Translations under genes and position numbers: made by a program | Notes under the pieces: generated by a model | Told to the model about the DNA's origin: nothing | What the model saw: only the letters and a program-made list of their open reading frames with translations | Databases searched by the model: none | Origin: Planctomycetota bacterium | Lineage (GTDB): Bacteria; Planctomycetota; Planctomycetia; Pirellulales; Pirellulaceae | Direction: 5' to 3' | NCBI GenBank assembly: GCA_041178745.1 | Contig: JBEGUT010000001.1 | Coordinates: 1 to 44,567 of the forward strand | DNA: 44,567 bases | In this document: piece after piece, positions 281 to 28,909 of the stretch | Numbering within the stretch: position 1 is the first letter of the stretch | How the letters are laid out: each line of letters begins with the position of its first letter

Positions 281-1072
281 CTTGCTGGCAAATCAAAAAG
301 GTAAGCCAGTAAGCGGGGACAGTTTTTGTTCGAGTCGACGTGCATGACTGCTAGCAAACCACGAGGAAGAGAGGACAGTCCTTGTTCCGTGCTTGTTCCG
401 TGGATTGGTCGATTGGCTTGCTAGCGATTAAAAAAACCAACTAGAAAAACTAACTAGGACAGTCCTTGTTCGCATCGACATTCTCGCCCTGCTAGCAAGC
501 TTACGTAAGACGGCGGAAGACAGGACAGTCCTCGTTCTTTTGTTGCAGGTCGGCGCCAGTTGCTAGCAAATCACACTGAAGACCGTGAAGCGAGGACAGT
601 CCATGTTCTGCGGAGTCGTTGATCGACTTGCTAGCAAATCCTCCGCAGCAAACTGAGATACCAGGGGAAGAGAGGACAGTCCTTGTTCTCGGCTGACTTG
701 CTAGCAAATCAAAAAGGGAAACCGGGACAGTCCTGTTCGCCTTGATGTCCTCGCCCTGCTAGCAAACTTACGTAAGACGGCGGAAGACAGGACAGTCCTC
801 GTTCTTTTGTTGCAGGTCGGCGATAGTTGCTAGCAAATCCCACTGAAGACCGTGAAGGCAGGACAGTCCTTGTTCTTTGGAGTCGCTCATCGACTTGCTA
901 GCAAATCCCCCGGCAGCAAGCGGAGGTACCAGGGGAAGAGAGGACAGTCCATGTTCTTGTTCACTTGTTGAAGATTGGCTCGGCTTGATAGTTTAACTTG
1001 ATGAAGAAAGTGAAGACGGGACAGTCCTTGTTGCGTGTTGTTGCGTGGATGACAACAGCTTGCTAGCAAACT
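281..1072 (+). repeat. Mosaic intergenic repeat array A: about 11 units alternating a GGACAGTCCTTGTTC-type module with a TTGCTAGCAA-type module
   Basis: Read directly. GGACAGT cores start near 317 (degenerate), 373, 457, 523, 594, 674, 725, 790, 861, 942 and 1019. GCTAGC cores are at 350, 420, 491, 562, 630, 700, 758, 829, 897 and 1062, plus a GCTGGC variant at 284. Block about 457-690 recurs at about 724-957 (offset 267-268 bp). Confidence 0.9.
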
Positions 1073-1177
1073 ATACAGAAGTGAGGGCGGTCTTTCTTCC
1101 GGGGCTTTGTTGCCAAGAGTCGCCTCCAGAAAGTTCTTGCCGTCAGCGATGAGTCTGTACCAAAGGAACTTGCTGGC

Positions 1178-2641
1178 TCACGGTTTCACGAGCGTTTTTC
1201 TTTTAAAGATCGCCGTCCAGATACAGGGCAGTCCCCAGCCAGTTAACAGATAAAGCATCGGCAGGGCGGGGGACCGCATGCGCATGTTGCTCCAGTACAC
1301 CGCATGAACCATCGTCACGCTGAGAACCAATAGCCAGCCGACAAACCATGGGAAGCTTTTGTTGGCTGCACCGAGCTTGTAGGCGCCCAGCAGCGCCACA
1401 ACATACAGCCCGATATACCAAACGCAGATGAGCCATTTCGAGGCAGAGTCGGGGCGCGGGTTGGGAAGTGGTGTCCAGAGCCAACCAAGTCTCACCACAG
1501 CTGACCAAGTTGCGATCGCTGGTCGTTCTCTGATAGTCGCTATCGCAACTTTTTGTGCTAGCTGATCTTCAATGATTTCGCGATGAAGTTTAGAGTCTAA
1601 GTGATTGCGACTTGTCTGGTCGCTTTTTTTCTCCTTGCTGTTAGAAGGCGTTTCGCTCGACAGGCCACTCGCATCGGTCGCGACGTTTTGTTTTGTACGC
1701 ACCGCTTGATGCCAAAAGTCTTCTGACATCGGATCCATCGTGTCACGATTTGCCCATAACTTGTGAAAGCGATCCTCGTCCCAATCGCGAGAGAGGGAGC
1801 CGGAAGCGAGATGATCATACAGAATCGGATTGTTGGCGAGCAGCAAGGTGTAGCCGCCATGAGTAGTCGCCCAAATCGGTTTTCCTATTTCTCTTTGATT
1901 ACGGATCATCCATGGTGCGATAATAGTCATCGCGCCGATCAAGATCGCCGCGGTTGCACGCATTTTTGCGCCGCGCTCGGCTCGCATCGAAGTGATAATC
2001 GAGCCATTGAAAATCGCGCTGGCGAGAAAGGTTAGAAGAATCAAGCCAAGCCAAACGATTGCCGTAGGTCTTGTGAGCGTTGCAATGCCGAAACTCATTC
2101 CAGCGATCAGACCGGCAAGCAGCATCGAAGAGTTTGTTTTGTCTCTCGAATCAGTATCTTCAAGAGTGTCGTAAACTTGAATGCAGAGCCACCATGAAAG
2201 CAGAGCAAGTGTTGTTGCCAACGTCTCGGTCATTAAGAGTTGGCTTTGACGGACAAGCAACGGATCAAAAGAGAAGGCGATAGCGATCAGTGAAATATAA
2301 GGTACAGCGAGTCTCCGCCCGATGAGCAACAAAAACCCAGCAGAGCAAGTTGCCGAGAGCGAGTGAAGAATACCGATGGCCATGACGGATGGTTGGCCGA
2401 AAAGTTTTATCGCTAAAGCTATTGCTGCTGGATAAAGTGGCGGTCGAAAAGCGGTCGGCTGTACCGCTCCGTTTGCATCGGCGAAGCCAAAGGTGCTCGA
2501 TGCTGCGAGTTGTTTCGCCAGCGTCAGGTAGCTATCTGGATCGGTAAGTAAAATGGTCGCTGGAATTGCGATAACAGCCAAGCGAAAAATGAAGACCGCA
2601 CTGAGCAACCACCAATCGCCACGAATCACGGCGAGCACCAT
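1178..2641 (-). CDS. Polytopic membrane protein, GT-C fold glycosyltransferase family 39 / ArnT-PMT-like
   Basis: 487-aa ORF with many hydrophobic helices. The N-terminal region (TDPDSYLTLAKQLA...FRPPLYPAAIAL) looks like PMT_2/ArnT-type proteins. It overlaps the upstream gene by 16 nt on the same strand. Confidence 0.6.
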   Translation of the reverse strand: MVLAVIRGDWWLLSAVFIFRLAVIAIPATILLTDPDSYLTLAKQLAASSTFGFADANGAVQPTAFRPPLYPAAIALAIKLFGQPSVMAIGILHSLSATCSAGFLLLIGRRLAVPYISLIAIAFSFDPLLVRQSQLLMTETLATTLALLSWWLCIQVYDTLEDTDSRDKTNSSMLLAGLIAGMSFGIATLTRPTAIVWLGLILLTFLASAIFNGSIITSMRAERGAKMRATAAILIGAMTIIAPWMIRNQREIGKPIWATTHGGYTLLLANNPILYDHLASGSLSRDWDEDRFHKLWANRDTMDPMSEDFWHQAVRTKQNVATDASGLSSETPSNSKEKKSDQTSRNHLDSKLHREIIEDQLAQKVAIATIRERPAIATWSAVVRLGWLWTPLPNPRPDSASKWLICVWYIGLYVVALLGAYKLGAANKSFPWFVGWLLVLSVTMVHAVYWSNMRMRSPALPMLYLLTGWGLPCIWTAIFKRKTLVKP

Positions 2642-3774
2642 TTCGGATCAGGTTGGTTTTCGATCTTTGCAGGGCTTCCCTGCAATTGATTAATGCTAGA
2701 TCGCTTTTCAGCAACCGCTTCGGGGGTCATTAAGATTTCCAATTGCAAGCAGAATTCCTTTTGTTCGCCAGGTGCGAGAGGAACGATGCGCTGTTGTTCT
2801 TCTTCGAAACCGCGAGCATTAGGGAAACCGGTCGCGGGCTCAAGTCCCGTGACGTATCCATCACGTTCGGCTACGGTATTTTTCCAAAGAATGAAGAAGG
2901 GGAGTGTGTCTGTGCGACTACTGACCGACACTCCCAACGATTCAGCCGCGTTGGTAAGGACGGCAGTGGTCCACTTATTTGAATCGGCAATTGGCTGCGT
3001 GAAGTAAACCTGCTCCTGATAGCCGGCTACAGGTTCGGTAAATGAGTTCCATGTCGCTGCATCTTTAGCGGCATGTGCGTTGCGTGGTACGACGCGACGA
3101 GTGGGTACATAAACATGCGAACCACCTTCAAGGATCGGTCGGCCTATGTTGATGTGATAAAGTAGCTGCATGCTCGAAGGCCGCGCCGATGCATTCATCA
3201 CTGTGTCGTTGATATCGATCGTGCGGCTATTGATTCGCAAGCGATAAGTGGTCTTGATGCGGAGATCATAAATCAGAAAGCGTGATTCGCAGGTAACGGT
3301 CTCAATAGTGATCTCACCTGCTTCGGTATCGACGTTGAGTTCTACATACTCGACAGGGAGGTTGGCGATGCGACCATGAAGCGGGTACTGCAAGTGACCT
3401 TGAGCATTGAATTGAGGTGCTCCATTGCTTTGTAGACCGCAGCGAACGAGTAGTTCATCGAATCCTTCCAGCCAACCGATTCCACTGGGGTCGAAGATCG
3501 GCACGAATTGCGGGTGCACTGGCCCACGCGTTGGTGAGCTCCAGCCGATTTCGATACCATCGCATGAAATTTTCCAAATCCCCATACCGCGAGATGGAAG
3601 AAAGGTGACTTCCATCGGGCCGGTATTGACCCGCAACATCTCGACTCCTTCGCTACGGGCGCCATGAAGACGATCCCAATAAACTTCAAAGTTTCCTTTG
3701 TCGGTTTCGATTTGGGTCGGCGGATGCGATTCTCGATCGAACCAATCAAGTAGAGTCCAAGAGAGTTTGGTCAT
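2626..3774 (-). CDS. Aldose-1-epimerase-like (DUF4432-type) protein
   Basis: 382-aa ORF. The segment GWLEGFDELLVRCGLQSNGAP...YPLHGRIANLP matches my memory of the DUF4432 / galactose-mutarotase-like fold. It is divergent from a sugar isomerase cluster. Confidence 0.6.
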   Translation of the reverse strand: MTKLSWTLLDWFDRESHPPTQIETDKGNFEVYWDRLHGARSEGVEMLRVNTGPMEVTFLPSRGMGIWKISCDGIEIGWSSPTRGPVHPQFVPIFDPSGIGWLEGFDELLVRCGLQSNGAPQFNAQGHLQYPLHGRIANLPVEYVELNVDTEAGEITIETVTCESRFLIYDLRIKTTYRLRINSRTIDINDTVMNASARPSSMQLLYHINIGRPILEGGSHVYVPTRRVVPRNAHAAKDAATWNSFTEPVAGYQEQVYFTQPIADSNKWTTAVLTNAAESLGVSVSSRTDTLPFFILWKNTVAERDGYVTGLEPATGFPNARGFEEEQQRIVPLAPGEQKEFCLQLEILMTPEAVAEKRSSINQLQGSPAKIENQPDPKWCSP

Positions 3775-4060
3775 GGGCTGGTCCTAAAAAGCGACGATGG
3801 CGATCCTTTTCCGCGATGTCGCAGATTATAGCCAAAGCGTTTTGGGGGAGGTGGGGTGAGCCAGATCTACCGTTCGGCATAAATCTAATCCTAAATGGGG
3901 GTTTTTGGGTGGATAGGCCCCCATCGAATACTTGCCGACAACCGATTGGGCGAATACAACCACACCAATATCGTTTTTCCTTAAACCTGAGGGCTTGAGG
4001 AAAAGTTATGCGGCTCGCCGATGAATGTGCGTTTTTTAAAAGCGTTAGAGAATTTCAATC

Positions 4061-5320
4061 ATGACAACCGTGCGTTTGGATGAAGGTTTGGTCAAAGGGG
4101 ATAGTGTTTCGAAGATCTTGCAGCGAGCTTTGGATGCAGGTGAAGGTTTGTTGCGACTGACACCAACCTGGGTACCTCGCAGTTTCTTGCATCCTGGTCG
4201 CCGCATTAAACTTTTTCCTGGCGATCTTTACGCGTTTGGAGCAGACCGTGGTGGTATCGATGAGCGTTGGTTTGCCAGTACCACGGAAGCGGCTAACGAC
4301 GGTCGCGTTTGGCATGAAGGTTTGAGCTTCTGCTTGTTCGAAGGGCAAAAGTTTTTGCTCAAAGATGCAGTCGCTGAAGCGGGAGCACGGTTGATCGGCA
4401 ATTCAATTTTCGGCAAGTACAACCGCTGGCCCGTCTACTCGAAGTTCTTCGACAACATGGGGCCAATTCCTCACCACATGCACCAGTCGCAGAAAGATGC
4501 GGCGCTTGTGGGACAGGAAGGAAAACCCGAAAGCTATTACTTCCCGCCACAATACAACAACGTTGACAACAACTTCTGTTACACCTTCATGGGCCTAGAG
4601 CCTGGAACGACCAAAGAAGATTTGCGTCGTTGTTTGGCTAACTGGAATAAAGGTGATAACGGTATTTTGGATCTGTCCCGAGCTTACCGTTTGAAGCGTG
4701 GTACCGGTTGGTTGATTCCCCCAGGTGTTTTGCATGCACCAGGCTCGCTCTGCACGTACGAGCCTCAGTGGGGCAGTGACGTGTTTGGTATGTTCCAATC
4801 GATCGTCGAAGGTCGCTATGTACCTTGGTCATTGTTGGTCAAAGATATGCCGAAGGATAAGCATCAAGATCTCGACTTCATCATCGGCCAGCTCGACTGG
4901 GAAAAGAACGTAGATACACATTTCAAGGACAGTAATTACATCGAACCGATTGTCGATAGCGAACGAAGTGGTCCCGGTTATACCGACAAGTGGATTGTTT
5001 ATGGATCGATTGACAAGCAGCAATTGTTCTCGGCTAAGGAGTTGACCGTCGAACCAGGTGCGAGGTGCATACTCAAGGATCCAGGCGCCAGCGGTTGGAT
5101 CACTGTGCAGGGCAAGGGAACTATCGGCAAGCTCGCTTTACAAACACCTGCGATGATTCGTTTCGGAGAGAACACTGAGGACGAAGTGTTTATTTCGCAC
5201 GAAGCTGCTACTCGGGGTGTAGAAGTGGTCAACACGGGCGCTGAGCCGCTGGTAGGTCTTCGTTACTTTGGTCCAGACGTTCACGCGAACATGCCAGCCA
5301 ATGGCGCATGGAAGAAGTAG
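4061..5320 (+). CDS. Cupin-type sugar isomerase-like protein (phosphomannose-isomerase-like); function uncertain
   Basis: 419-aa ORF with His-rich GPIPHHMHQSQ and a later WLIPPGVLHAPGS...YEPQ, resembling metal ligands of PMI-type cupins. The ORF is solid; the family call is tentative. Confidence 0.45.
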   Translation: MTTVRLDEGLVKGDSVSKILQRALDAGEGLLRLTPTWVPRSFLHPGRRIKLFPGDLYAFGADRGGIDERWFASTTEAANDGRVWHEGLSFCLFEGQKFLLKDAVAEAGARLIGNSIFGKYNRWPVYSKFFDNMGPIPHHMHQSQKDAALVGQEGKPESYYFPPQYNNVDNNFCYTFMGLEPGTTKEDLRRCLANWNKGDNGILDLSRAYRLKRGTGWLIPPGVLHAPGSLCTYEPQWGSDVFGMFQSIVEGRYVPWSLLVKDMPKDKHQDLDFIIGQLDWEKNVDTHFKDSNYIEPIVDSERSGPGYTDKWIVYGSIDKQQLFSAKELTVEPGARCILKDPGASGWITVQGKGTIGKLALQTPAMIRFGENTEDEVFISHEAATRGVEVVNTGAEPLVGLRYFGPDVHANMPANGAWKK

Positions 5321-5387
5321 TCTTCTCTTTTTCTATCGCTGTTTACATCTTTTCTTTTTACTTTGAAACTTGGAGTTCGATTGTCAT

Positions 5388-6422
5388 ATGACTCAACATG
5401 CGATGCCCAAGCTGCATAATGCGATGTGGCCTGGTTTAGTGGGTAAGGGAAATGAACCGGGTCAGGAGCCGCCGATCAGTCTGGAGAAGATGCTCGATTT
5501 GACTGCGGCTGCGAACGTTAACGGTCGCAAGTTTGATGGGATCGATTATTTCCTCTTTCTTCCACACACCGATCCAAACGCGAGTGACTCTGAGCTCAAT
5601 CGTATCGCTGATATGATCGCGTCGAAGGGTTTTTCGGTTGGATCGTTGGTCGCGCCTGTGTGGCCGGGTACTGTTGGTGATTCTGCGATGGGCGATGATG
5701 CAGCGCAAGAAAAATTCTTGTCCGCTGTGAAGATGGCTTGCCGCATCGCTGGTATCTTCAACAAGCATGGTGTGCGTAAGTATGGTGTGATCCGCATCGA
5801 CTCGGCAGAGTTTGGTGTTGAGAAATGGCGATCTAATGCGAAGGCTAACACCAGTCGTATCGCAGACACTTTCCGCAAGGCTGCCAAGATCGCTGCTGAT
5901 CATGGCGAGCGATTAGCGGCCGAAGGAGAGATTTGTTGGGCCGGTATGCATTCTTGGAAGGATATGCTCGACTTGCTTGAGGCTGTCGGCATGCCAGAAA
6001 CTCTGGGCTTCCAAGCCGACTTGGCACACACCTATCTGTATCTGTTGGGCTACAACGCGCCTGAATACGCGTTGCTCAAGGATGGATACGCAGAAGCTGA
6101 GTTCTGGGCCAAGTATGAGGAGATGACCAACAAGTTGCGTCCTTGGACGATCGATTTCCATGTGGCTCAAAACGATGGTCACGTTCACGGTGCAGGTTCG
6201 CACGACAAGACCGGTAAGCATTGTCCTGCCGATGATCCGAACGGAAAGCTCGACATCGTTCGCTGCGCAGGCTACTGGCTCAAGGACGCCTCGAAGCGTG
6301 GTATTAAGCATATCTGCTGGGATGGTTGTATGTTCCCCAACGCAACTTTGGAGTCGCCGAAGACTTGGAATACCATTCTCGACACGATGATCAAGGTGCA
6401 GAACGCGCATGGCTGGTCTTGA
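5388..6422 (+). CDS. Xylose-isomerase-like TIM-barrel protein (sugar phosphate isomerase/epimerase family)
   Basis: The ORF is listed from TTG 5370; I prefer ATG 5388 (MTQHAMPKL...). Length and composition are typical of AP_endonuc_2/TIM-barrel family members that sit beside Gfo/Idh/MocA genes. Confidence 0.6.
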
Positions 6423-6447
6423 TCGTTAAGCTCACTGGTCACTTTTA

Positions 6448-6475
6448 GACCCCAGGAGGTGACTCCTGGGGTCTC
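6448..6475 (+). terminator. Perfect 12-bp stem-loop downstream of the TIM-barrel gene
   Basis: AGACCCCAGGAG-GTGA-CTCCTGGGGTCT read directly. There is no clear T-tract after it, so terminator function is uncertain. Confidence 0.5.
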
Positions 6476-6553
6476 GATAAATGTAGTTGTCGCTGCAAAA
6501 CATTTTTTAAACTGAAAATGGCTCTCTTTTCCTTTGGCTTTTGGAAATAACTT

Positions 6554-7693
6554 ATGTCGCATACACCTTTACGAATCGGTATGGTTGGCTACGGCTTCAT
6601 GGGTCGCGCTCATTCCAATGGGTACTCCCAAGCGAATCACTTTTTTGATTTGAAGTACAAGCCTGTGTTGCAAGCAGTTGCTGCTCGTAACGCTGATAAA
6701 GCTAAGGCGTTCGCAGACCAGTGGGGTTATCAATCGATTGAGACCGATTGGCGAAAGTTGGTCGAACGCAAAGATATCGACGCGATCGATATTTGCACTC
6801 CGAATAACCTTCATAAAGAAATTGCTCTCGCAGCAGCTGCCAACGGCAAAATGATTCTTTGCGAAAAGCCGTTGTCGATGAATACGGCTGAAGGCGAGGA
6901 AATGGTTGCTGCCGTGGAAAAGGCAGGGGTAGCCAACACGGTGTGGTACAACTACCGCCGTATTCCTGCTGTGTCTTTGGCGAAGCAATTGATTGACGAA
7001 GGCAAGCTGGGACGCATTTTCCATTATCGCGCTTTGTTCTTGCAGGACTGGACGATCTCCGAAGAAGTTCCACAAGGTGGAACCGCGACTTGGCGATTGG
7101 ATGCTCAGGCTGCTGGTAGCGGTGTGACTGGCGACTTGCTGGCTCACTGCATCGACACAGCGATTTGGCTCAACGGTAGTATCACTGGCGTTTCGGCAGT
7201 GACGGAAACGTTCGTTAAAGAACGTATGCATGCCGAGACCGGCAAGAAGGAAGCGGTGCACATCGATGATGCAGCAGCGTTCCTGGCGAAGTTTAAAAAT
7301 GGTTCGTTGGCGACATTCGAGTCGACTCGCTATGCCCGAGGACACAAAGCTCTCTACACGTTGGAAATCAATGGCGAGAAGGCGTCGATCAAATGGGATC
7401 TCCATGACCTTCATCGCTTGAGCTACTTTGATTATCGCGATGAAGGTCGCGTTCGCGGTTGGAGAAGCATTCACGTATCGGATGGTGATCAGCCTTACAT
7501 GAAGAACTGGTGGGTTCCCGGTTTGCAGATCGGATACGAACACAGTTTTGTGCACCAGGTTGTCGACTTCCTCAAGTCGCTTGAGACAGGTAAGCCTTGC
7601 AGTCCAACTTTCCGCGAAGCTTTGGAAACACAAAAGGTTTGCGATGCGGTTCTGCAGAGTGCGAAGTCAGGTGCTTGGGTCGGAATTTCTTAA
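6554..7693 (+). CDS. Gfo/Idh/MocA family NAD(P)-dependent oxidoreductase
   Basis: N-terminal Rossmann motif [16 protein letters not shown] and a conserved LCEKPL motif; 379 aa. Confidence 0.85.
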
Positions 7694-7720
7694 AGAACTT
7701 TCAAGGATCGGTAACGCGGA

Positions 7721-8467
7721 GTGAATTATTTTGCTCATGCCCGCCGCCATTTGCTAAGTAACCAATGGATGATGGGGCCCGGTGTTCAAGCCGGGCCCTA
7801 TTTTCTAGCGGGCGTCGCTTTGCCGGATTGGTTAAGTGTCATCGATCGCCGAGTTAGGGCTCGCAGCGAACCGGCGGCGCGATTGCTCAGGGATTCCGAT
7901 CCCCGGGTTGTCGCTGTGGCGCGTGGTATTATCCAACACCACTTTGATGATCGCTGGTTTCATCAGACCCCAGAATTTCTTGTGCTTTCCAGCCAATTCG
8001 CAGTGGAATTAAGACAGTGGCTCGACGTCGAGCAGGGTGCCCAGCCAGGATTTGTGGGGCATATTTTGGTAGAGTTATTGCTTGATTCAAGTTTGATTTT
8101 AGAAAATCCAGTAGTTCTAGACCGTTACTATAAAGCGCTTGAGCAATTGGATCCGCAGTGTGTCGAGTCAGTTGTCAATCGTGTCAGTAAGCATCCGACT
8201 GATATGGTCAGTCGACTGATTCCTCGGTTTATTCGCGAGCGCTTCTTGTACGACTACCAAGAGGACGCCAAACTTTGGATGCGACTCAACCATGTCATGG
8301 GGCGAGTGAAGTTGCCGCAGTTGCCGGCAAGTCTCATCGACTGGCTACCTGAAGCGCGGCGACGTGTCGAAGAGGCGAAGCATCAGTTGATGTGGGCTCA
8401 AGATCACGACCCTCCTTGGGATCAATTCCTCCAATCATTAGAAACCTCTCCAGATAAGGAAACTTGA
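7721..8467 (+). CDS. Hypothetical protein with a weak ACP-phosphodiesterase (AcpH/DUF479)-like N-terminus
   Basis: GTG start. MNYFAHARRHL and the later GIIQHHFDDRWFH resemble AcpH MNFLAHLHLA and HMHRRID. The similarity is recalled from memory, not computed. Confidence 0.35.
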   Translation: MNYFAHARRHLLSNQWMMGPGVQAGPYFLAGVALPDWLSVIDRRVRARSEPAARLLRDSDPRVVAVARGIIQHHFDDRWFHQTPEFLVLSSQFAVELRQWLDVEQGAQPGFVGHILVELLLDSSLILENPVVLDRYYKALEQLDPQCVESVVNRVSKHPTDMVSRLIPRFIRERFLYDYQEDAKLWMRLNHVMGRVKLPQLPASLIDWLPEARRRVEEAKHQLMWAQDHDPPWDQFLQSLETSPDKET

Positions 8468-8469
8468 TT

Positions 8470-9315
8470 ATGAAAATCGGTATGAATTTGTTGTTATGGT
8501 CCGGTGAGCTCAATGATGGATTGTTACCTATCCTCAAAGAAATAAAGAGCATGGGATTTGATGGAGTGGAGTTGCCGATTTTCAACTTGGATCTCGATTA
8601 TGCCAAATGGGGAAAGATTCTCGATGACATGGGCCTAGCGAGAACTGCGGTCACGGTTCGAAATGTTGACGACAATCCCATCTCCTCCGATGCCGCAGTG
8701 CGTGCGCGAGGTGTCGAACTCAATAAGAAGACCCTCGATTGCTGTGCCGCCGCGGGTGTTGAAAGCTTGATCGGTCCTTATCATTCCGCGCTCGGACACT
8801 TCAGTGGCGCCGGCCGAACCGAGAGCGAATGGAAGTGGGGCGTCGATAGCATGAGCCAAGTTGCTGAACATGCTGGTAAAGTGGGAGTGAAGCTTGGTAT
8901 CGAACCGCTGAATCGTTTCGAATGCTACTTCTTGAACACTCATGCCGATGCAGCTGCTTTTGCTCGCGCGGTCAATCATCCCAATTGCGGAATGATGTAC
9001 GACACTTTTCACAGCAATATAGAAGAGAAAAGTATTCCTGCGGCGCTGCAGGCTTGCAAAGATAAGCTCATTCATATCCACATCAGCGAAAACGATCGCA
9101 GTACACCAGGTGCAGGAAATATACGTTGGCGTGAAAATTTCCAAGCCATCAAGGATATTGGTTACGATGGTTGGTTGGTGATCGAAGCGTTTGGTCTAGC
9201 GCTTCCAGAACTCGCCGCAGCGACTCGTATTTGGCGACGTATGTTCGACAATGAATTGCAGCTTGCTCGTGAAGGCTTGGCGTTTATCAAGTCACAACTT
9301 GCCGCAAATCGGTAG
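8470..9315 (+). CDS. Xylose-isomerase-like TIM-barrel sugar epimerase/isomerase (ketose 3-epimerase-like)
   Basis: MKIGMNLLLWSG...GFDGVELPIF at the N-terminus, and IHISENDRSTPG / WLVIEAF near the C-terminus, are typical of this family. ATG 8470 is preferred to TTG 8464. Confidence 0.75.
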   Translation: MKIGMNLLLWSGELNDGLLPILKEIKSMGFDGVELPIFNLDLDYAKWGKILDDMGLARTAVTVRNVDDNPISSDAAVRARGVELNKKTLDCCAAAGVESLIGPYHSALGHFSGAGRTESEWKWGVDSMSQVAEHAGKVGVKLGIEPLNRFECYFLNTHADAAAFARAVNHPNCGMMYDTFHSNIEEKSIPAALQACKDKLIHIHISENDRSTPGAGNIRWRENFQAIKDIGYDGWLVIEAFGLALPELAAATRIWRRMFDNELQLAREGLAFIKSQLAANR

Positions 9316-17660: not shown

Positions 17661-18119
17661 TCACTGTTTTGCGTTCTTGAGCCAATGAAGTAATTCGCGG
17701 AGATTGCGGGGATTCTGGCCTAGATCCCCTTTTCCTATCCGCGACCGGCTTATGGCGTTGACCATGGTTCCTTCTGCGGTAGAGGTTAACGTGACATAGA
17801 TGTCATCGCTGAAGCGGAGTAGGGCGGTTGTGCGGACCAGATGGATCTTGCGCGCTGAGGGATCGATCGTCGAGGAATCGATGAAGCTCCAAAGTGGGAG
17901 TTCGGACGGGAGGCGGCGAAGCGAATTTTCCAGGGCATCGGGGGTGGCGGAAGAAGTCCAGGTTCGCAGCCTTTGGTCCTTGGCAGCGGGAGATGTTTCG
18001 GCCACATTGGTGGAGAGGTCGCGCGACCAATCTTCGATGTATGAAAAAATCCAAACTGTGATCGCTACAGCTACAATGGCCACAGCGATACCGATCCAGC
18101 GAAAGAGGTCTGTTGTCAT
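17661..18119 (-). CDS. DUF1499-family protein with an N-terminal membrane anchor
   Basis: N-terminal TM (WIGIAVAIVAVAITVWIF) and a C-terminal RFSDDIYV...SRSRIGKGDLGQNPRNLRELL block typical of DUF1499. Confidence 0.65.
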   Translation of the reverse strand: MTTDLFRWIGIAVAIVAVAITVWIFSYIEDWSRDLSTNVAETSPAAKDQRLRTWTSSATPDALENSLRRLPSELPLWSFIDSSTIDPSARKIHLVRTTALLRFSDDIYVTLTSTAEGTMVNAISRSRIGKGDLGQNPRNLRELLHWLKNAKQ

Positions 18120-19449
18120 GGATCTATTTGAAAATATGGAACGGGATAATAGGCGTCAAAACGAGCCGCTGGCCGCGCGTATGCGACCTCGCGATTTGTC
18201 AGAGTATATCGGACAAGAGCATTTTTTGGGGCCTGGCAAGCTGCTACGCCGTTTGATCGATGCAAAAAGATTGGGATCGATCCTGCTTTATGGCCCACCT
18301 GGTACAGGTAAAACGACGCTCGCACATCTCCTAGCCAAGCACACTGGTGGTGCTTTTCGGCAGCTTAGCGCGGTGACTAGCGGGGTCAAGGAGTTACGGG
18401 AAGTTCTGCAATGGGCGCAGGATGAAGTATCATCCGGACAGCCCAAGCCGCTGCTATTTATCGATGAGATTCATCGCTTTAATCGATCTCAGCAAGATGC
18501 ACTGTTACCTGATGTGGAGTCGGGGATCATCAGTTTGATCGGGGCGACAACGAGTAATCCTTTTTTTGCGGTCAATGGCGCGTTGCTCAGTCGCAGTCAG
18601 ATCTTTCAGTTGCAGCCGCTCCAAGAATCTCAAATTGTTCAATTGCTTGAGCGAGCTATTGCGGATAAGGAACGCGGATTGGGTTGGATACCGATTCAAG
18701 CAGAGAAGGCTGCGCTGGAGTACCTTGCGAGAATTGTAGAAGGGGATGCAAGGCAGGCGTTGGGGGCTTTGGAGGTGGCTGTACTATCCTGTCCTAAGCG
18801 GCCTGTCGTGATTGATTTGCCGCTAGCACAGGAGTCGGTGCAGCAGAAGTTGATTCAATTCGATCCTTCTGGTGATCAGCATTACGACATGGCCAGTGCG
18901 TTGATCAAGAGTATTCGAGGGAGCGATCCCGATGCCTCGTTGTATTGGCTGGCACGGATGCTGGAAAGTGGCGAGGATATAAGGTTTCTTTGTCGAAGGT
19001 TAGTGATTTTGGCAAGTGAGGATGTTGGTAACGCGGATCCGAACGCGTTAACGTTAGCTGTAGCTGCAATGCAAGCATGTGAATTTATTGGTTTGCCAGA
19101 AGCACAGCTGACTTTGTCACAAACGGTTATTTACCTCGCTTGCGCGCCGAAAAGTAATTCCGCAACGGTTGCTATCGGATTAGCTCGGCAGGAAGTTCGG
19201 CAAGGTCAGTTGATTCCTGTGCCTATTCATTTGCGTGATAAACATTATGCAGGTGCCGATCAGTTGGGGCATGGAAAGGGCTATCAGTATTCGCACAACA
19301 GTGACGATGGTGTTGCAGCTCAGGATTACCTCGGTGTGGATCGCATCTTTTACACACCGACCGATCGAGGTGCGGAGCGGGAGATTGGTGAGCGGCTCTT
19401 AAGGATTCGCGAAAGATTGCAGGAAGCGAAGAAGGGCAGTGCATCGTAA
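18118..19449 (+). CDS. rarA: Replication-associated recombination protein A (AAA+ ATPase)
   Basis: PLAARMRP..L.EYIGQEH, Walker A GPPGTGKTT, DEIHRFN.SQQDALLP, GDAR.AL, SIRGSDPDA.LYW..RM, ASEDVGNADP, YLA.APKSN. The listed ORF start at 17800 is an upstream extension; ATG 18118 matches the RarA N-terminus. Confidence 0.9.
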   Translation: MDLFENMERDNRRQNEPLAARMRPRDLSEYIGQEHFLGPGKLLRRLIDAKRLGSILLYGPPGTGKTTLAHLLAKHTGGAFRQLSAVTSGVKELREVLQWAQDEVSSGQPKPLLFIDEIHRFNRSQQDALLPDVESGIISLIGATTSNPFFAVNGALLSRSQIFQLQPLQESQIVQLLERAIADKERGLGWIPIQAEKAALEYLARIVEGDARQALGALEVAVLSCPKRPVVIDLPLAQESVQQKLIQFDPSGDQHYDMASALIKSIRGSDPDASLYWLARMLESGEDIRFLCRRLVILASEDVGNADPNALTLAVAAMQACEFIGLPEAQLTLSQTVIYLACAPKSNSATVAIGLARQEVRQGQLIPVPIHLRDKHYAGADQLGHGKGYQYSHNSDDGVAAQDYLGVDRIFYTPTDRGAEREIGERLLRIRERLQEAKKGSAS

Positions 19450-19578
19450 CTGGTCGATGGCCGGCTGGTTTTTCAGATGTTAACCAAAAGTTTCTCCGAT
19501 GACGCTCATCTTTTGATGACATTCATATTTTGAAAAACGATTCTAGATCTTTTACGACTGCAACTCCGATCGATCAAA

Positions 19579-20130
19579 TTTTCCCTTTTGAATTGCTAGC
19601 AAGTCGAACGACGAATCTACGGAACAAGGACTGTCCTCTCTTCCGCGTGGTTTGCTAGCAGTTCATGCACGTCATCCCGAACCAGGACTGTCCCGGTTTC
19701 CCTTTTGAATTGCTAGCAAGTCGATCGACGAGACCATGGAACAAGGACTGTCCTCTCTTCCGCGTGGTTTGCTAGCACATCATGCATGTCAACTCGAACC
19801 AGGACTGTCCCGGTTTTCCCTTTTGAATTGCTAGCAAGTCGATCGATAAGTCGATGGAACAAGGACTGTCCTCTCTTAACACTGTGCTGAGTGCGAATTG
19901 CTAGCGGGACCGGGCGATTTGCAGCAAAAGAACCAGGACTGTCCCGTCTTTTTTTGGTTGCTAGCATGTCGAGAACTTAGATGCGAGCAAGGACTGTCCT
20001 CTCTTCTGCGAGATTAGCAAGCAAGTCGAATCGGTCTGTCGCAAGAGAACAAGAAGAGAACAAGGACTGTCCCGGTTTCTTGGGGTGAGGGGCGAACAAC
20101 GATCGTTCTTTTTTCGGAGAATGCTAGCAA
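19579..20130 (-). repeat. Mosaic intergenic repeat array B: same family as A and C, inverted orientation, about 8-9 units
   Basis: GGACTGTCC cores at 19628, 19685, 19745, 19802, 19863, 19936, 19991 and 20064. GCTAGC cores at 19595, 19654, 19712, 19771, 19830, 19900, 19960 and 20123, plus a degenerate copy near 20013. The dimer unit repeats at 19581, 19698 and 19816. Confidence 0.9.
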
Positions 20131-20473
20131 TTCACCATAAGAATATTCGGCGACTGCAGTTGCTATCTTGGTTTGAGAAGGAGTTGCAAGACACGACGTG
20201 ACTCCAAAAGGGAGTGACGATTTCTCGAAATGATAGCCTTTCTAAAGTCGTCATTTTTTCTTTTTAGAATCTGTATTCTTTTCGAGTGTTTTGATGGCGA
20301 TAGGTCGCGGGGTTAACGTCATGCTCGTTGGGAGTCAAATTGCTGAGAAGTTTCATAAAGGGTGAAGTTCCTCTTGAGGGGAAGACGAGTTGCAGGCTAT
20401 ACACGCCGCTACTGGAGTTAGTTGGAGGAGTTGTGTTAGCGTTTGGACTTGGGGAGTATGGAGATTTCTATCG

Positions 20474-26079: not shown

Positions 26080-26382
26080 AGTTGCTTTCCTTATGCCGGA
26101 AGTTAACGAACACGAACTCCAGTTGATCATAAGGTTCAAAGCTCGTGCCAATCGATGCGGAGTAGCAGGTTGTTGGCGAAGTTCTAGGTAAATTGTTGGA
26201 ATTAGTGCGTTTGAAGCGATGTTATTCAGGGATCAGATTCCAAAAAAAGGGAATTGAGAGCGAGAAAATGATCCGCTTGGGTGGTAGCAGGATGAATAAT
26301 GGTGGGGGGCTGAGAGTGTTTGGGTTTTTCAAGGGCTTGATGTGTGCGAAAGTGCACACGAATTGTGCGGGGAATGAGCGTC

Positions 26383-27345
26383 ATGGCCAAAATGTTGGAT
26401 CGCGTTGATTTGCGAGGTCTTATACCACCGCTGGTAAGCCCGGTGAATTTTGACGGAAGTTTGGATCTCGAAGGGACGAGACGATTAGTGGATCATGTGA
26501 TCGATGGTGGGGCTGCGGGGTTATTTATTTTGGGAACATGCGGCGAAGGTGCGGCCTTAAGTTATCGAAAGCGATACCAGTTTGTAGAGGCAGTTTGTGA
26601 AGCAGCAGCGGGACGGTTACCGGTGTTGGTTAGTGTGAGCGATACGAGCTTAGAGGAAGCGTTGGATCTGGCAACGCACTCATTCGCTTCCGGCGCATCG
26701 GCTGTTGTTTCGACTGGGCCTTACTTTCTTCCAGTACCTTCAGGACATATGGAAACGTATTTCCAAAGACTGGCGGACGAAAGTGCTTTGCCGCTAGTTT
26801 TGTACAACATGCCTGGCTGCACCAAGTTCAGCATTGCGCCAGCAGTTGTGGGACGCTTGGCAAAGCATCCCAGGATATTGGGTATCAAGGATAGTTCTGG
26901 AGATTTGAATTACGTCCGCGAACTTATTGCTGCAGTTGCTGGCCAAAGTTTTCCGGTGATGATTGGCCCGGAGGAATTGTTATTGCCAGCGATGGAGTTG
27001 GGCGCCGTTGGTGGCGTTAATGGTGGAGGTTTGTTGTTTCCCCAAGTGTATTCGGCTCGCATCGAAGCGTTTCGGCGGGGTGATTTTGATCTAGCGAAAA
27101 AGGCCGATGAATTTGTTCAAACGCTTAGTCGACAACTCTATTCAGCACCCTCGGGGCGAATGGCAGTCATTGAAGCATTGAAGCTCAGCTTGTCGTTGTT
27201 GGGGATATGTCAGCCTTGGGTACTTTCCCCTTTATTGCCGTTGGAAGAGGAGCATCGTCAGCGGATTACCCGATCCATTCCCGATCTCGAATTGATGGCA
27301 CATCAGTTGTGCCCCACCACAAAGCTGCACACTTCTTCCGTTTGA
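26383..27345 (+). CDS. Dihydrodipicolinate synthase / N-acetylneuraminate lyase family aldolase
   Basis: GLFILGTCGEGAALS (GTxGE motif), YNMPG and the Schiff-base lysine context ILGIKDSSGD. The start could be ATG 26374 or 26383. Confidence 0.8.
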   Translation: MAKMLDRVDLRGLIPPLVSPVNFDGSLDLEGTRRLVDHVIDGGAAGLFILGTCGEGAALSYRKRYQFVEAVCEAAAGRLPVLVSVSDTSLEEALDLATHSFASGASAVVSTGPYFLPVPSGHMETYFQRLADESALPLVLYNMPGCTKFSIAPAVVGRLAKHPRILGIKDSSGDLNYVRELIAAVAGQSFPVMIGPEELLLPAMELGAVGGVNGGGLLFPQVYSARIEAFRRGDFDLAKKADEFVQTLSRQLYSAPSGRMAVIEALKLSLSLLGICQPWVLSPLLPLEEEHRQRITRSIPDLELMAHQLCPTTKLHTSSV

Positions 27346-27370
27346 TTCTGACGCGGTAGTTCGCGCTTCA

Positions 27371-27897
27371 CTCGCTAGCATTCTCCCCTAAAACCGGGAC
27401 AGTCCTTGTTCGCGTGCCCCCCAGCCTGCTAGCAAACCACGCTGAAGACAGGACAGTCCTTGTTCTCAGGTCGCAGCTGGGCACGATTTGCTAGCGAATC
27501 TCGCTGAAACTAGAGCGAAGACGGGACAGTCGTTGTTCCGGTCGAACCCGAATCGATCTGCTAGCAAATATCATCTCGAAAAGAGAAGACAGGACAGTCC
27601 TTGTTCTCTGGTTGCAGCTCGGCTCGAATTGCTAGCAAATCAAAAAGGGAAGACTGGGAAAGTCAAGAAAGGACAGTCCTTGTTCTCGGCCGCTGAAACC
27701 GGGACAGTCCTTTTTCCTTGGGTGCGTCAATCGATTTGCTAGCAAGCCACGCAAAAGACAGGACAGTCCTGGTTCCTGCCTTTGTGTTAACATGCCCGAA
27801 CTGCTAGCAAATCAAAAAGGGAAACCGGGACAGTCGTTTCTCCTGTCTTATTCGTTTTGCTGGCAAATCAGAGGCAAGCCAGGGAAGTCGTTGTTCG
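27371..27897 (+). repeat. Mosaic intergenic repeat array C: same family and orientation as A, about 8-9 units
   Basis: GGACAGTC cores at 27397, 27451, 27524, 27592, 27671, 27702, 27761 and 27828, plus a degenerate copy near 27883. GCTAGC cores at 27374, 27428, 27490, 27560, 27631, 27738 and 27803, plus a GCTGGC variant at 27859. Confidence 0.9.
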
Positions 27898-28300
27898 CGC
27901 CGAGGGAAGACGAAGAATTGCCTGTTGGATGAAGGAACTGAAGCCGGCGATGAGATCGGTAGCAGCGAAAGGGGGGGAGTAAATGGCAAAACTGATTGAG
28001 TCGGGTCGGCGAACTTCAATCAGTCAGGGTAGTTGCTTTTGGGGGTGCTTTGATTCGGGGGTGTTAACCGGGGCTATTTGACCTTGTTATTTGAGGTTGG
28101 GTTGACGATACTTTCGTGCTTACATCGAAGTCAGGCTTAACCCAACCATGCCTTGTCGGTTTGGTTTTAGGCGATGAAGTAGTTCGCCACGCTCAAAAGT
28201 TTGTTATGAGTGAGGGATTAGGCCGCGTCTGTCCGAAAAAACTGGGAGCAGACTCGTCGACTTAAGTTAGATTTGTTTTTGGATTTGGAGCAATTTTGGT

Positions 28301-28909
28301 ATGGCTCGGTACCACGGTCCGAAAGCCCGCGTCAATCGTCGCTTGGGCGTCTTGGTTTTTGAAAACGCAGGTGCAATTAAAGCAAAAGAACGTCGCGACA
28401 CACCCCCAGGTATGCACGCTCGCGGACGACGCACCAGTAACTACGGCACTGCTTTGTCGGAAAAGCAGAAGATCAAATACTATTACGGCTTGGGTGAGCG
28501 TCAGCTACGACGCTTCTTTGCCGAAGCCTTGCGCCGCAAAGGCAACACGGGTGAAAACCTTCTCATTCTTTGCGAACGTCGCTTAGACAACGTGGTTCGT
28601 CGCGCTGGTTTCACCAAGACCCGTCCTCAGTCCCGCCAGGGTATCGTCCACGGCCATTTCAAGGTCAACGGCGTTAAGGTAACCAGCCCAAGCTACATGG
28701 TTCGCGCTGGCGATGTGATTGAATTGAAAGGCCGCGAGAATTTGAAGAACCTCTATCGCGGTATTTTGGCTAACAGTAGCGCCCAGCCGTTAGATTGGGT
28801 TAGCTTCGATACAGAAAATCTCACGGCGACTGTAAAGAGCAATCCAACGTCTAACGACGTCAGCTTGCCGGTCAATGCAAACATCGTGGTCGAATTCTTG
28901 TCTCGCTAG
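28301..28909 (+). CDS. rpsD: 30S ribosomal protein S4
   Basis: MARYHGPKARVNRRLG..., YGLGERQLRRFF, S4 RNA-binding domain RLDNVVRRAGF..TR.Q.RQ.I.HGH..VNG. Confidence 0.95.
   Translation: MARYHGPKARVNRRLGVLVFENAGAIKAKERRDTPPGMHARGRRTSNYGTALSEKQKIKYYYGLGERQLRRFFAEALRRKGNTGENLLILCERRLDNVVRRAGFTKTRPQSRQGIVHGHFKVNGVKVTSPSYMVRAGDVIELKGRENLKNLYRGILANSSAQPLDWVSFDTENLTATVKSNPTSNDVSLPVNANIVVEFLSR

Follow-up and report, generated by a model that had tools for sequence, protein, structure and literature searches.

Head-to-tail arrays of a two-module palindromic repeat in Pirellula-like Planctomycetota, probably REP/BIME-like elements of a long-form Y1 transposase family

Repetitive extragenic palindromes (REPs) and bacterial interspersed mosaic elements (BIMEs), together with the REP-associated tyrosine transposase (RAYT, or TnpA_REP), are described from E. 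coli and other Proteobacteria (Ton-Hoang et al. 2012, as cited in PMC3733652), and it is almost entirely from Proteobacteria that knowledge of such systems comes. For planctomycetes, Di Nocera et al. 2013 (PMC3733652) reported GTAG and CGTC REPs along with many tyrosine transposases in Rhodopirellula baltica, and described the tandem (head-tail) reiteration of REPs with flanking DNA, while Quentin et al. 2018 (PMC6006769) placed class 3 TnpAY1 'REPtron-like' loci in Planctomycetes, Acidobacteria and Proteobacteria, the planctomycete ones having 'atypical secondary structures' and standing between insertion sequence (IS) and REPtron. Herein we characterize three intergenic repeat arrays (A, B and C) in positions 1 to 44,567 of contig JBEGUT010000001.1 from a Planctomycetota bacterium of the Pirellulaceae; the whole 44,567-nt stretch, with a G+C content of 50.6%, is hereafter called the window. 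The units of these arrays combine two palindromic modules, P1 (GGAC-A-GTCC) and P2 (TTGCTAGCA(A/T)), and we consider it probable that the arrays are non-autonomous REP/BIME-like repeats of a long-form (350-460 aa) Y1 HUH transposase family of Pirellula-like Planctomycetota.

Within the whole window, GGACNGTCC occurs in 24 exact copies against 0.35 expected, none of them outside the three arrays (373-1027 on the + strand in array A, 19628-20072 on the - strand in array B and 27397-27769 on the + strand in array C), and TTGCTAGCAA occurs in 11 exact copies against 0.04 expected, every one within arrays. With degenerate copies included, arrays A, B and C hold 11, 9 and 8 P1-like cores and the same numbers of P2-like cores, which amounts to about 28 units in three arrays over 44.6 kb. 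The cores of array B appear on the + strand as GGACTGTCC, i.e., its units are read on the - strand. As for the hexamer GCTAGC, 25 sites lie within arrays and 11 in the remaining 42.7 kb, the latter being about the chance number, so that it is neither enriched nor avoided elsewhere in the window; an NheI-like restriction avoidance was ruled out on the same count. The arrays had been picked out in an earlier sequence-only reading of the window, and its counts (including ~25 GCTAGC sites inside the arrays and ~11 outside, at chance), and coordinates proved accurate on recount.

The repeats are not confined to this window. A first scan of GTDB genomes with a pattern of 17 specified bases and a 31-wide gap returned 118 loci, mostly chance matches, from which the multi-core Planctomycetota loci (Pirellula sp. 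metagenome-assembled genomes (MAGs) and the MAG 'REEB503') were retained; a second scan of Joint Genome Institute (JGI) metagenomes with a stricter three-core pattern gave 42 loci, and an exact-protein look-up of the window RpsD gave five loci from close relatives. Among the fetched loci, 62 arrays with the P2-P1 architecture (TTGCTAGCA(A/T) - N - (G)GGGACAGTCCC(C)) were found in freshwater Planctomycetota contigs, all of them intergenic, and in a stricter count the P1 orientation was uniform within 64 of 65 P1 clusters. Arrays recur roughly every 10-15 kb, next to housekeeping genes. Other lineages preserve the cores (C)GGGGACAGTCCCC(G) and TTGCTAGCA(A/T) with linkers unrelated to those of the window, and their period is tight (about 58 bp). 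The association of the two cores and their intergenic location, first noticed in the window alone, are thus found among its relatives too. In the published literature, TTGCTAGCAA, GGACAGTCC, GGACTGTCC and GGGACAGTCCC match only primers and unrelated sequences, and we found no account of the P1/P2 repeat family in the literature on REPs or REPINs (REP doublets forming hairpins) in planctomycetes. Rfam returned no match for the whole window at gathering thresholds, and for array A at E ≤ 10 only two chance-level matches (mir-1011 and raiA); the absence of matches rules out a known Rfam RNA family, Rhodopirellula-1 included. The suggestion of the sequence-only reading that the family had not been described therefore stands as far as this could be tested; the kind of element (REP-like), however, is already known.

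The arrays lead to a gene in sister lineages. In the REEB503-like lineage, at least six different 5' flanks join one common array end and leader (three of these junctions lie in a single MAG, and most are at contig ends), and different 5' flanks attached to a common 3' sequence are the signature of a multi-copy element. At locus L151 the common 3' sequence continues into a 387-aa open reading frame (ORF, 2145-3308) with the motifs NHIHQ and LYVDLNAVKAGL, which matches the NCBIfam model of the REP-associated tyrosine transposase (NF047646, E = 3e-9, 36.8 bits). Full-length homologues (38% identity) adjoin arrays in L127, L147, L149 and L154, and partial ones are found in L124 and L158, at array loci that had been fetched by DNA pattern alone. 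The family comprises 789 homologues at E ≤ 1e-5, largely from Pirellula and Pirellulaceae MAGs and many on 1-3-kb contigs, and several are annotated in IMG as 'REP element-mobilizing transposase RayT'. In the alignment of these proteins (350-460 aa), N-H-x-H, R175 and Y-x-D-L-N are invariant, an insertion with SWWMRL is conserved between the catalytic motifs, as is a C-terminal block (RCSDKGFL...Y...L.W), and Pfam Y1_Tnp (PF01797) is matched by 12 of 20 members. For the AlphaFold model (pLDDT 73, pTM 0.75), the best Foldseek match in the PDB was 4ER8 (E. coli REP-associated tyrosine transposase in complex with a REP hairpin), and the second to 27th ranks include the ISDra2, IS200 and IS608 TnpA proteins.

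A separate feature of these loci is a conserved leader between the last P1 and the Y1 gene (1885-1935 in L151), identical at the six or more genomic junctions. It includes a terminator-like hairpin (CCGAATT...AATTCGG) with a trailing T5, as well as a degenerate P2 (GGGCTAGCCC), and the leader recurs in L042, L098, L110, L126, L131, L134, L137 and L162.

The link was also assessed in the reverse direction, by fetching gene loci for nine further family members and counting distinct loci (n = 15). P1, or a GGGACAGACCC variant (stem CAGGG/CCCTG), is found no more than about 500 bp from the gene at 11 of the 15 loci (L151, L127, the L147 group, L166, the L167 group, L171, L174, L175, the L177 group, L181 and L071, the last being a Kiritimatiellae MAG); two have only a P2-like site upstream (L176 and L180), L173 has different inverted repeats and a GTAG-type tandem repeat, and L172 (Neorhodopirellula) has neither motif. 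The flanking copies are often mutually inverted (L151, L171, L071), though not in L174 and L175. The repeats and the Y1 gene are therefore linked in sister lineages, where a RAYT/Y1 gene flanked by the motifs, named by the sequence-only reading as something to look for, does occur. Moreover, the first unit of array C (C00) aligns with the units directly upstream of the L127 Y1 gene, linker included (GCTAGCATTCyCC...AAACCGGGGACAGTCC), which means that the window repeats are homologous to the gene-flanking ones, beyond a likeness in style. The two exceptional loci are worth describing in their own right. In L173, a distant homologue (P0092, 38% identity; features at 2533-2763, 2793-2814 and 4479-4769) is preceded by six 32-nt tandem repeats (CCGTAGCGCGAGCACTCCTGCCCGTTTTCCCCCC) resembling GTAG-type REPs and flanked by inverted GGGGACACAGCACnTTGC, i.e., a different cognate repeat with the same protein family. 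The L172 homologue, from Neorhodopirellula pilleata (features at 3604-3783 and 4530-4661), contains nine in-frame 15-nt repeats (SEDQS-like) and is followed by a (GGTTTA)n hexamer array, and no P1/P2 motif is present there.

Statistically, P1 behaves as a strand-specific hairpin. It takes the form NGGAC-A-GTCCN', which lengthens to CNGGGGACAGTCCCCNG in sister lineages, and in a set of 150 distinct P1 copies the bases at ±5, counted from the central A, form G-C (68 copies), A-T (46), G·T (27) or some other combination (8), with total pairing and covariation scoring above all 500 column shuffles. In a set of 208 units the fifth pair was G·T 31 times and A·C only twice. A symmetric-dimer duplex site would tolerate both mismatches equally, hence the abundance of G·T and near absence of A·C point to a hairpin of top-strand single-stranded DNA (ssDNA). 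In agreement, the three P1 flavours folded as ssDNA gave -5.2, -5.8 and -5.1 kcal/mol for the top strand versus -3.0, -4.3 and -3.3 kcal/mol for the bottom strand. The GGACAGTCC core would then be the loop-proximal part of the hairpin. How far the stem extends beyond ±5 depends on the lineage, reaching 6-7 pairs in the GGGG...CCCC lineages. The sequence-only reading had drawn a longer imperfect palindrome around GGACAGTCC; extended to ±9 it is ~50% paired and a slid control is similar, so that we do not endorse it beyond the fifth pair, and at most ±5 to ±7 is supported. Two side observations concern the same module. The array of locus L125 (1103-1418) represents a P2-poor sub-family, being made up of P1-like cores (CACCGGACAGTCCGGTG, paired at a distance of 22 nt) with a single GCTAGC, and L106, a Collinsella MAG from an unrelated phylum, carries three 33-nt perfect palindromes (at 362, 820 and 2405; AATGACGAAAAGGGACTGTCCCTTTTCGTCATT with a GGGACTGTCCC core), whose likeness to P1 could reflect convergence or the same element type.

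P2 does not share this behavior. Pairing outside TGCTAGCA shows no excess (0.55 observed versus 0.54 expected at ±5, and 0.36 versus 0.33 at ±6), and as ssDNA the module has no stable fold (0 and -0.6 kcal/mol); on these two results P2 was rejected both as a hairpin and as a stem closing each unit. Its position is constrained: in non-window lineages P2 precedes P1 on the 5' side by 28-29 nt (centre to centre) in 76 of 93 units, as against 24-26 or 33 nt in the window lineage. By analogy with related systems, P2 would most likely serve as a cleavage/target site, or else as a duplex site for the C-terminal domain of the transposase or for a host factor.

When arrays are cut at GCTAGC, the window units measure 54-75 bp and are irregular. 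Their consensus reads TTGCTAGCAAAyCA - variable - GAAGAsAGGACAGTCCTTGTTC - variable - CGAyTTGCTAGCAA, and a second flavour reads TTGCTAGCAAwTCAAAAAGGGAAACCGGGACAGTCCTGGTTC; in array B flavours 1 and 2 alternate as a 117-bp dimer over the first 2.5 periods (91% identity). Array A contains the 267-bp higher-order duplication that had been seen by eye, confirmed here by alignment of its two copies (211/236 positions, 89% identical, at an offset of 267-268 bp). Information content, calculated over 208 distinct units of many lineages, amounts to 2 bits at each core position, and linker positions stay under 0.3 bits. Four related strains share an orthologous array upstream of rpsD, with whole units gained or lost between them, and pairwise comparison gave identities of 95.6% (P1 core), 86.4% (P2 core) and 69.6% (linkers), a contrast that is somewhat inflated since repeat alignments anchor on the cores. 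By both measures the cores are more conserved than the linkers, as the sequence-only reading had it. The 117- and 267-bp duplications and the whole-unit differences between strains indicate growth by block duplication. Two other interpretations of the arrays were discarded, namely a CRISPR-like one, because the linkers are homologous between units, and tRNA or tmRNA genes, because no tRNAs were detected.

Four defining features are shared with the REP/BIME-RAYT system, in that the repeats are palindromic, extragenic and repeated, and in relatives, although in none of the same-lineage loci searched, are associated with a Y1 gene. The likeness extends to short imperfect palindromes restricted to intergenic DNA, mosaic arrays with semi-conserved linkers, and, in relatives, a Y1 HUH transposase gene flanked by repeats whose product has 4ER8 as its top structural match. 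The family's tyrosine motif (Y-x-x-x-N-P/A) is of the class-2 RAYT type (Table 1, PMC6006769). However, each unit here has a second, non-hairpin palindrome (P2), and the protein is about twice as long as a typical RAYT (350-460 aa versus roughly 150-190 aa); about 100 aa are inserted between its two catalytic motifs (HUH and Tyr), its C-terminal domain is conserved, its gene is multi-copy in at least one lineage, and the protein scores below curated family cutoffs. The class 3 signature given in PMC6006769 (NHVH, a Y----Q motif (YV[VI][AENY]EQ), a CnGA foot and about 155-178 aa) does not fit either, as the proteins here have Y-[VI]-D-L-N-[PA], lack a CnGA foot and are twice as long, and the arrays lack the unpaired tag that defines the GTAG and CGTC REP super-families. 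The comparison drawn by the sequence-only reading with REP/BIME mosaics is accordingly borne out as regards the palindromes, their extragenic location and the Y1 gene flanked by both motifs in relatives, as well as the strand-specific P1 hairpin; it does not hold for the GTAG/CGTC foot or for inverted pairing.

The IS200/IS605 elements (IS608, ISDra2) provide a second point of comparison, as they also combine a Y1 HUH transposase with subterminal hairpins recognized on one strand. For IS608, cleavage takes place 19 nt upstream of the foot of the hairpin. Here, too, a short sequence stands at a fixed distance 5' of a hairpin comparable to that of the left end (P2, 28-29 nt away from the centre of P1), hairpins lie on either side of the gene, and gene plus leader are multi-copy in one MAG, at three different junctions. 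In contrast to these elements, the hairpins are iterated 2-11 times, most arrays are gene-free, and left and right ends or a target duplication cannot be delimited.

Taken together, these likenesses suggest how the arrays may have arisen. The top strand of an array, when single-stranded, would form the P1 hairpin, a structure of the type that RAYT and the IS200/IS605 TnpA recognize, and by extension from the known biochemistry (4ER8, the IS608 and ISDra2 complexes) P1 may be recognized by the Y1 family. P2 could act as the cleavage/target site, which we favour by analogy with the IS200/IS605 site 5' of the left-end hairpin, and a unit ending in its own target would explain head-to-tail arrays. 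Alternatively, P2 might be bound as a duplex by the extra C-terminal domain or by a host factor, comparable to IHF, which binds some BIME linkers. Units would be seeded in intergenic DNA and then, in this genome, multiply mostly by tandem duplication of multi-unit blocks, presumably via slippage or unequal recombination. For the window arrays themselves, the action of a transposase is putative, as would be any benefit to the host.

Several points weigh against assigning the arrays to this transposase family. The NF047646 score of the L151 ORF (36.8 bits) is under the curated cutoff of 80 bits, and the ORF has no Pfam match at E ≤ 0.001; moreover, the Y1 protein sequence searched directly against the PDB gave no matches and a profile search against PDB transposases was weak (E = 0.4), so that only the structure comparison with the PDB is clear. 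Four of the 15 Y1 loci lack P1. The P1 stems in the window are short (five pairs plus wobbles), outer-stem pairing in the window lineage is only about 50% with a +1-slid partner control scoring similarly in covariation, and the covariation counts overstate the number of independent events because copies are related by descent within few sub-lineages. The REP foot is missing (within ±25 nt of P1, GTAG occurs in 9/208 and CGTC in 23/208 units, at no fixed position), and the units run head-to-tail whereas REPIN/BIME pairs are inverted or alternating; inverted P1 copies are seen here only on opposite sides of Y1 genes. The step assigned to P2 is the weakest part of the model. Lastly, a local profile search found no Y1 gene in the window or in same-lineage loci, which cover ~150-200 kb of the lineage, and the nine Y1 proteins that were traced to loci all led to sister lineages, where no window-type units were present; transposase activity on the window arrays is thus conjectural, and they may be relics.

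A possible refinement of the transposase assignment, which we regard as doubtful, is that the unit forms the bipartite substrate of a new long-form Y1 class across the PVC superphylum, whose HUH core would bind P1, with P2 being the cleavage site and preferred target or else the site of the C-terminal domain. The last point of the preceding paragraph instead suggests a relic minisatellite, whose units derive from a mobile REP-like ancestor on which no transposase now acts in this genome; slippage, unequal crossing-over and gene conversion would be the only sources of change in the arrays, and the conservation of the cores would reflect homogenisation, not selection. The missing Y1 gene, the growth by multi-unit block duplication, the decayed units at the array edges (TTGCTGGCAA at 281-290 and GGGCGGTCTTTC near 1086 in array A), and P1 stems that are shorter, in units that are more irregular (54-75 bp), than in the gene-bearing lineages with their 58-bp period, are all consistent with such a relic. 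Yet the absence of the gene is weak evidence with about 150-200 kb of the lineage visible, the contrast between cores at 96%/86% and linkers at 70% would hardly arise by neutral decay unless conversion were very frequent, and the cores have been kept across phylum-level distances, for which reasons we judge this explanation unlikely, somewhat more so than the bipartite substrate.

Two further explanations would do without a transposase, and both seem improbable to us. The modules might be operator-like duplex sites for one or two dimeric DNA-binding proteins, in the manner of sopC, iterons or nucleoid-organising sites, given that both cores are palindromic, that P2 is a perfect 8-10-bp palindrome without a hairpin signature and that the P2-P1 spacing is fixed in several lineages; furthermore, the repeats of sopC carry a GGGACC..GGTCCC inverted repeat, and sopC and iterons likewise consist of direct tandem units, each with a short inverted repeat. 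A half-site or duplex model does not, however, predict frequent G·T with hardly any A·C at ±5 of P1, nor better folding of the top strand than of the bottom one. In addition, the arrays here are chromosomal and multi-locus (three in 44 kb, with arrays about every 10-15 kb) amid housekeeping genes, their units are irregularly spaced, and they are repeatedly associated with a Y1 transposase gene while no ParB-like, par, rep (Rep) or other partition, replication or helix-turn-helix (HTH) gene is found near them, which leaves the centromere/iteron analogy of the sequence-only reading without support. Least probable of all, by a shade, is a structured RNA, each unit giving a P1 hairpin that could serve as a protein sponge, as a type III antitoxin-like RNA or as an mRNA stabiliser. 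G·U-tolerant, strand-specific pairing of P1 would suit RNA equally well as ssDNA, the array of one lineage ends in a terminator-like hairpin and T-run, and E. coli REPs do act in mRNA. Even so, array orientation is unrelated to that of the flanking genes, with 17 same and 15 opposite on the 5' side and 9 same and 13 opposite on the 3' side (counts that rest on crude ORF calls), and array B is antisense to both of its neighbours. A scan of the three window arrays showed no enrichment of promoter-like or terminator-like sites, no conserved toxin or RNA-binding protein gene is adjacent, and whole-array RNA folding beats shuffles only modestly and equally on both strands (z = -2.6 and -3.1), which is uninformative. 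The lack of orientation bias, of promoter and terminator enrichment and of any Rfam match, even at E ≤ 10, argues against an obligate RNA role.

If the arrays are indeed repeats of the Y1 family, the logic of ssDNA hairpin plus Y1 transposase operates here in Planctomycetota, in a form with two-module units, head-to-tail arrays, no GTAG foot, a double-size transposase and, in some genomes, multiple gene copies, and it offers a natural setting where IS-like and domesticated forms may exist side by side. P2, at its fixed distance from P1, provides a concrete sequence as candidate cleavage/target site. Should the bipartite-substrate reading be true, each insertion would recreate the target and so build head-to-tail arrays, unlike the inverted-pair REPIN/BIME route, and the reach of the class within the PVC superphylum would cover Planctomycetota and Kiritimatiellota. 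On the practical side, the arrays account for contig breaks in freshwater Pirellula-like genomes, and annotators gain a way to flag array regions instead of calling small ORFs there.

Table 1. Coordinates of the arrays, example cores and the duplication in the window
Feature	Position	Strand	Description
Array A	281..1100	+	About 11 head-to-tail units: P2 (TTGCTAGCAA)-linker-P1 (GAAGAsAGGACAGTCCTTGTTC or GAAACCGGGACAGTCCTGTTC)-linker
Array B	19579..20131	-	About 9 units, between MgsA-like AAA+ gene and next + strand ORF
Array C	27372..27896	+	About 8 units, between DHDPS-family gene (26344-27345) and rpsD (28301-28909)
Example P1 core GGACAGTCC	373..381	+	Exact copies: A 10, B 8, C 6
Example P2 core TTGCTAGCAA	560..569	unstranded	Conserved palindromic motif
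Array A four-unit (higher-order) duplication, copy 1	457..690	+	Alignment to copy 2
Array A four-unit (higher-order) duplication, copy 2	724..957	+	Alignment to copy 1

The genes next to the arrays (Table 1) are housekeeping genes. Array A lies downstream of a - strand ORF coding for a 487-aa membrane protein, and the MgsA-like AAA+ gene beside array B spans 17800-19449 (+). Most likely, the window arrays do not regulate these neighbours but are ordinary repeats of the genome.

Other observations were made at the array borders. Just beyond the 3' end of array B, at 19498-19533, a 17-nt tandem repeat (GATGACACTCATATTTT) is present in 2.1 copies. Upstream of rpsD, ~260 nt (28040-28300) are about 92% identical across the four strains compared with ~70% in the array linkers; this region has no Rfam family match and may represent a conserved promoter, or else a leader for S4 autoregulation. 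In the REEB503 MAG, a glycine riboswitch aptamer (RF00504, 58 bits) is located at 774-862 (-) of L110, about 200 nt from the array. Finally, array C borders an insertion point that varies between strains. In the close relatives L119-L122 (~940-8940), an insertion of about 7.5 kb with four genes, coding for a 1032-aa PF13809 Tubulin_2 protein, an 875-aa VWA protein, a 199-aa ORF and a Methyltransf_7 protein, sits exactly at the array C edge; L123 lacks it, as does the window, in which the empty site corresponds to 27345-27372.

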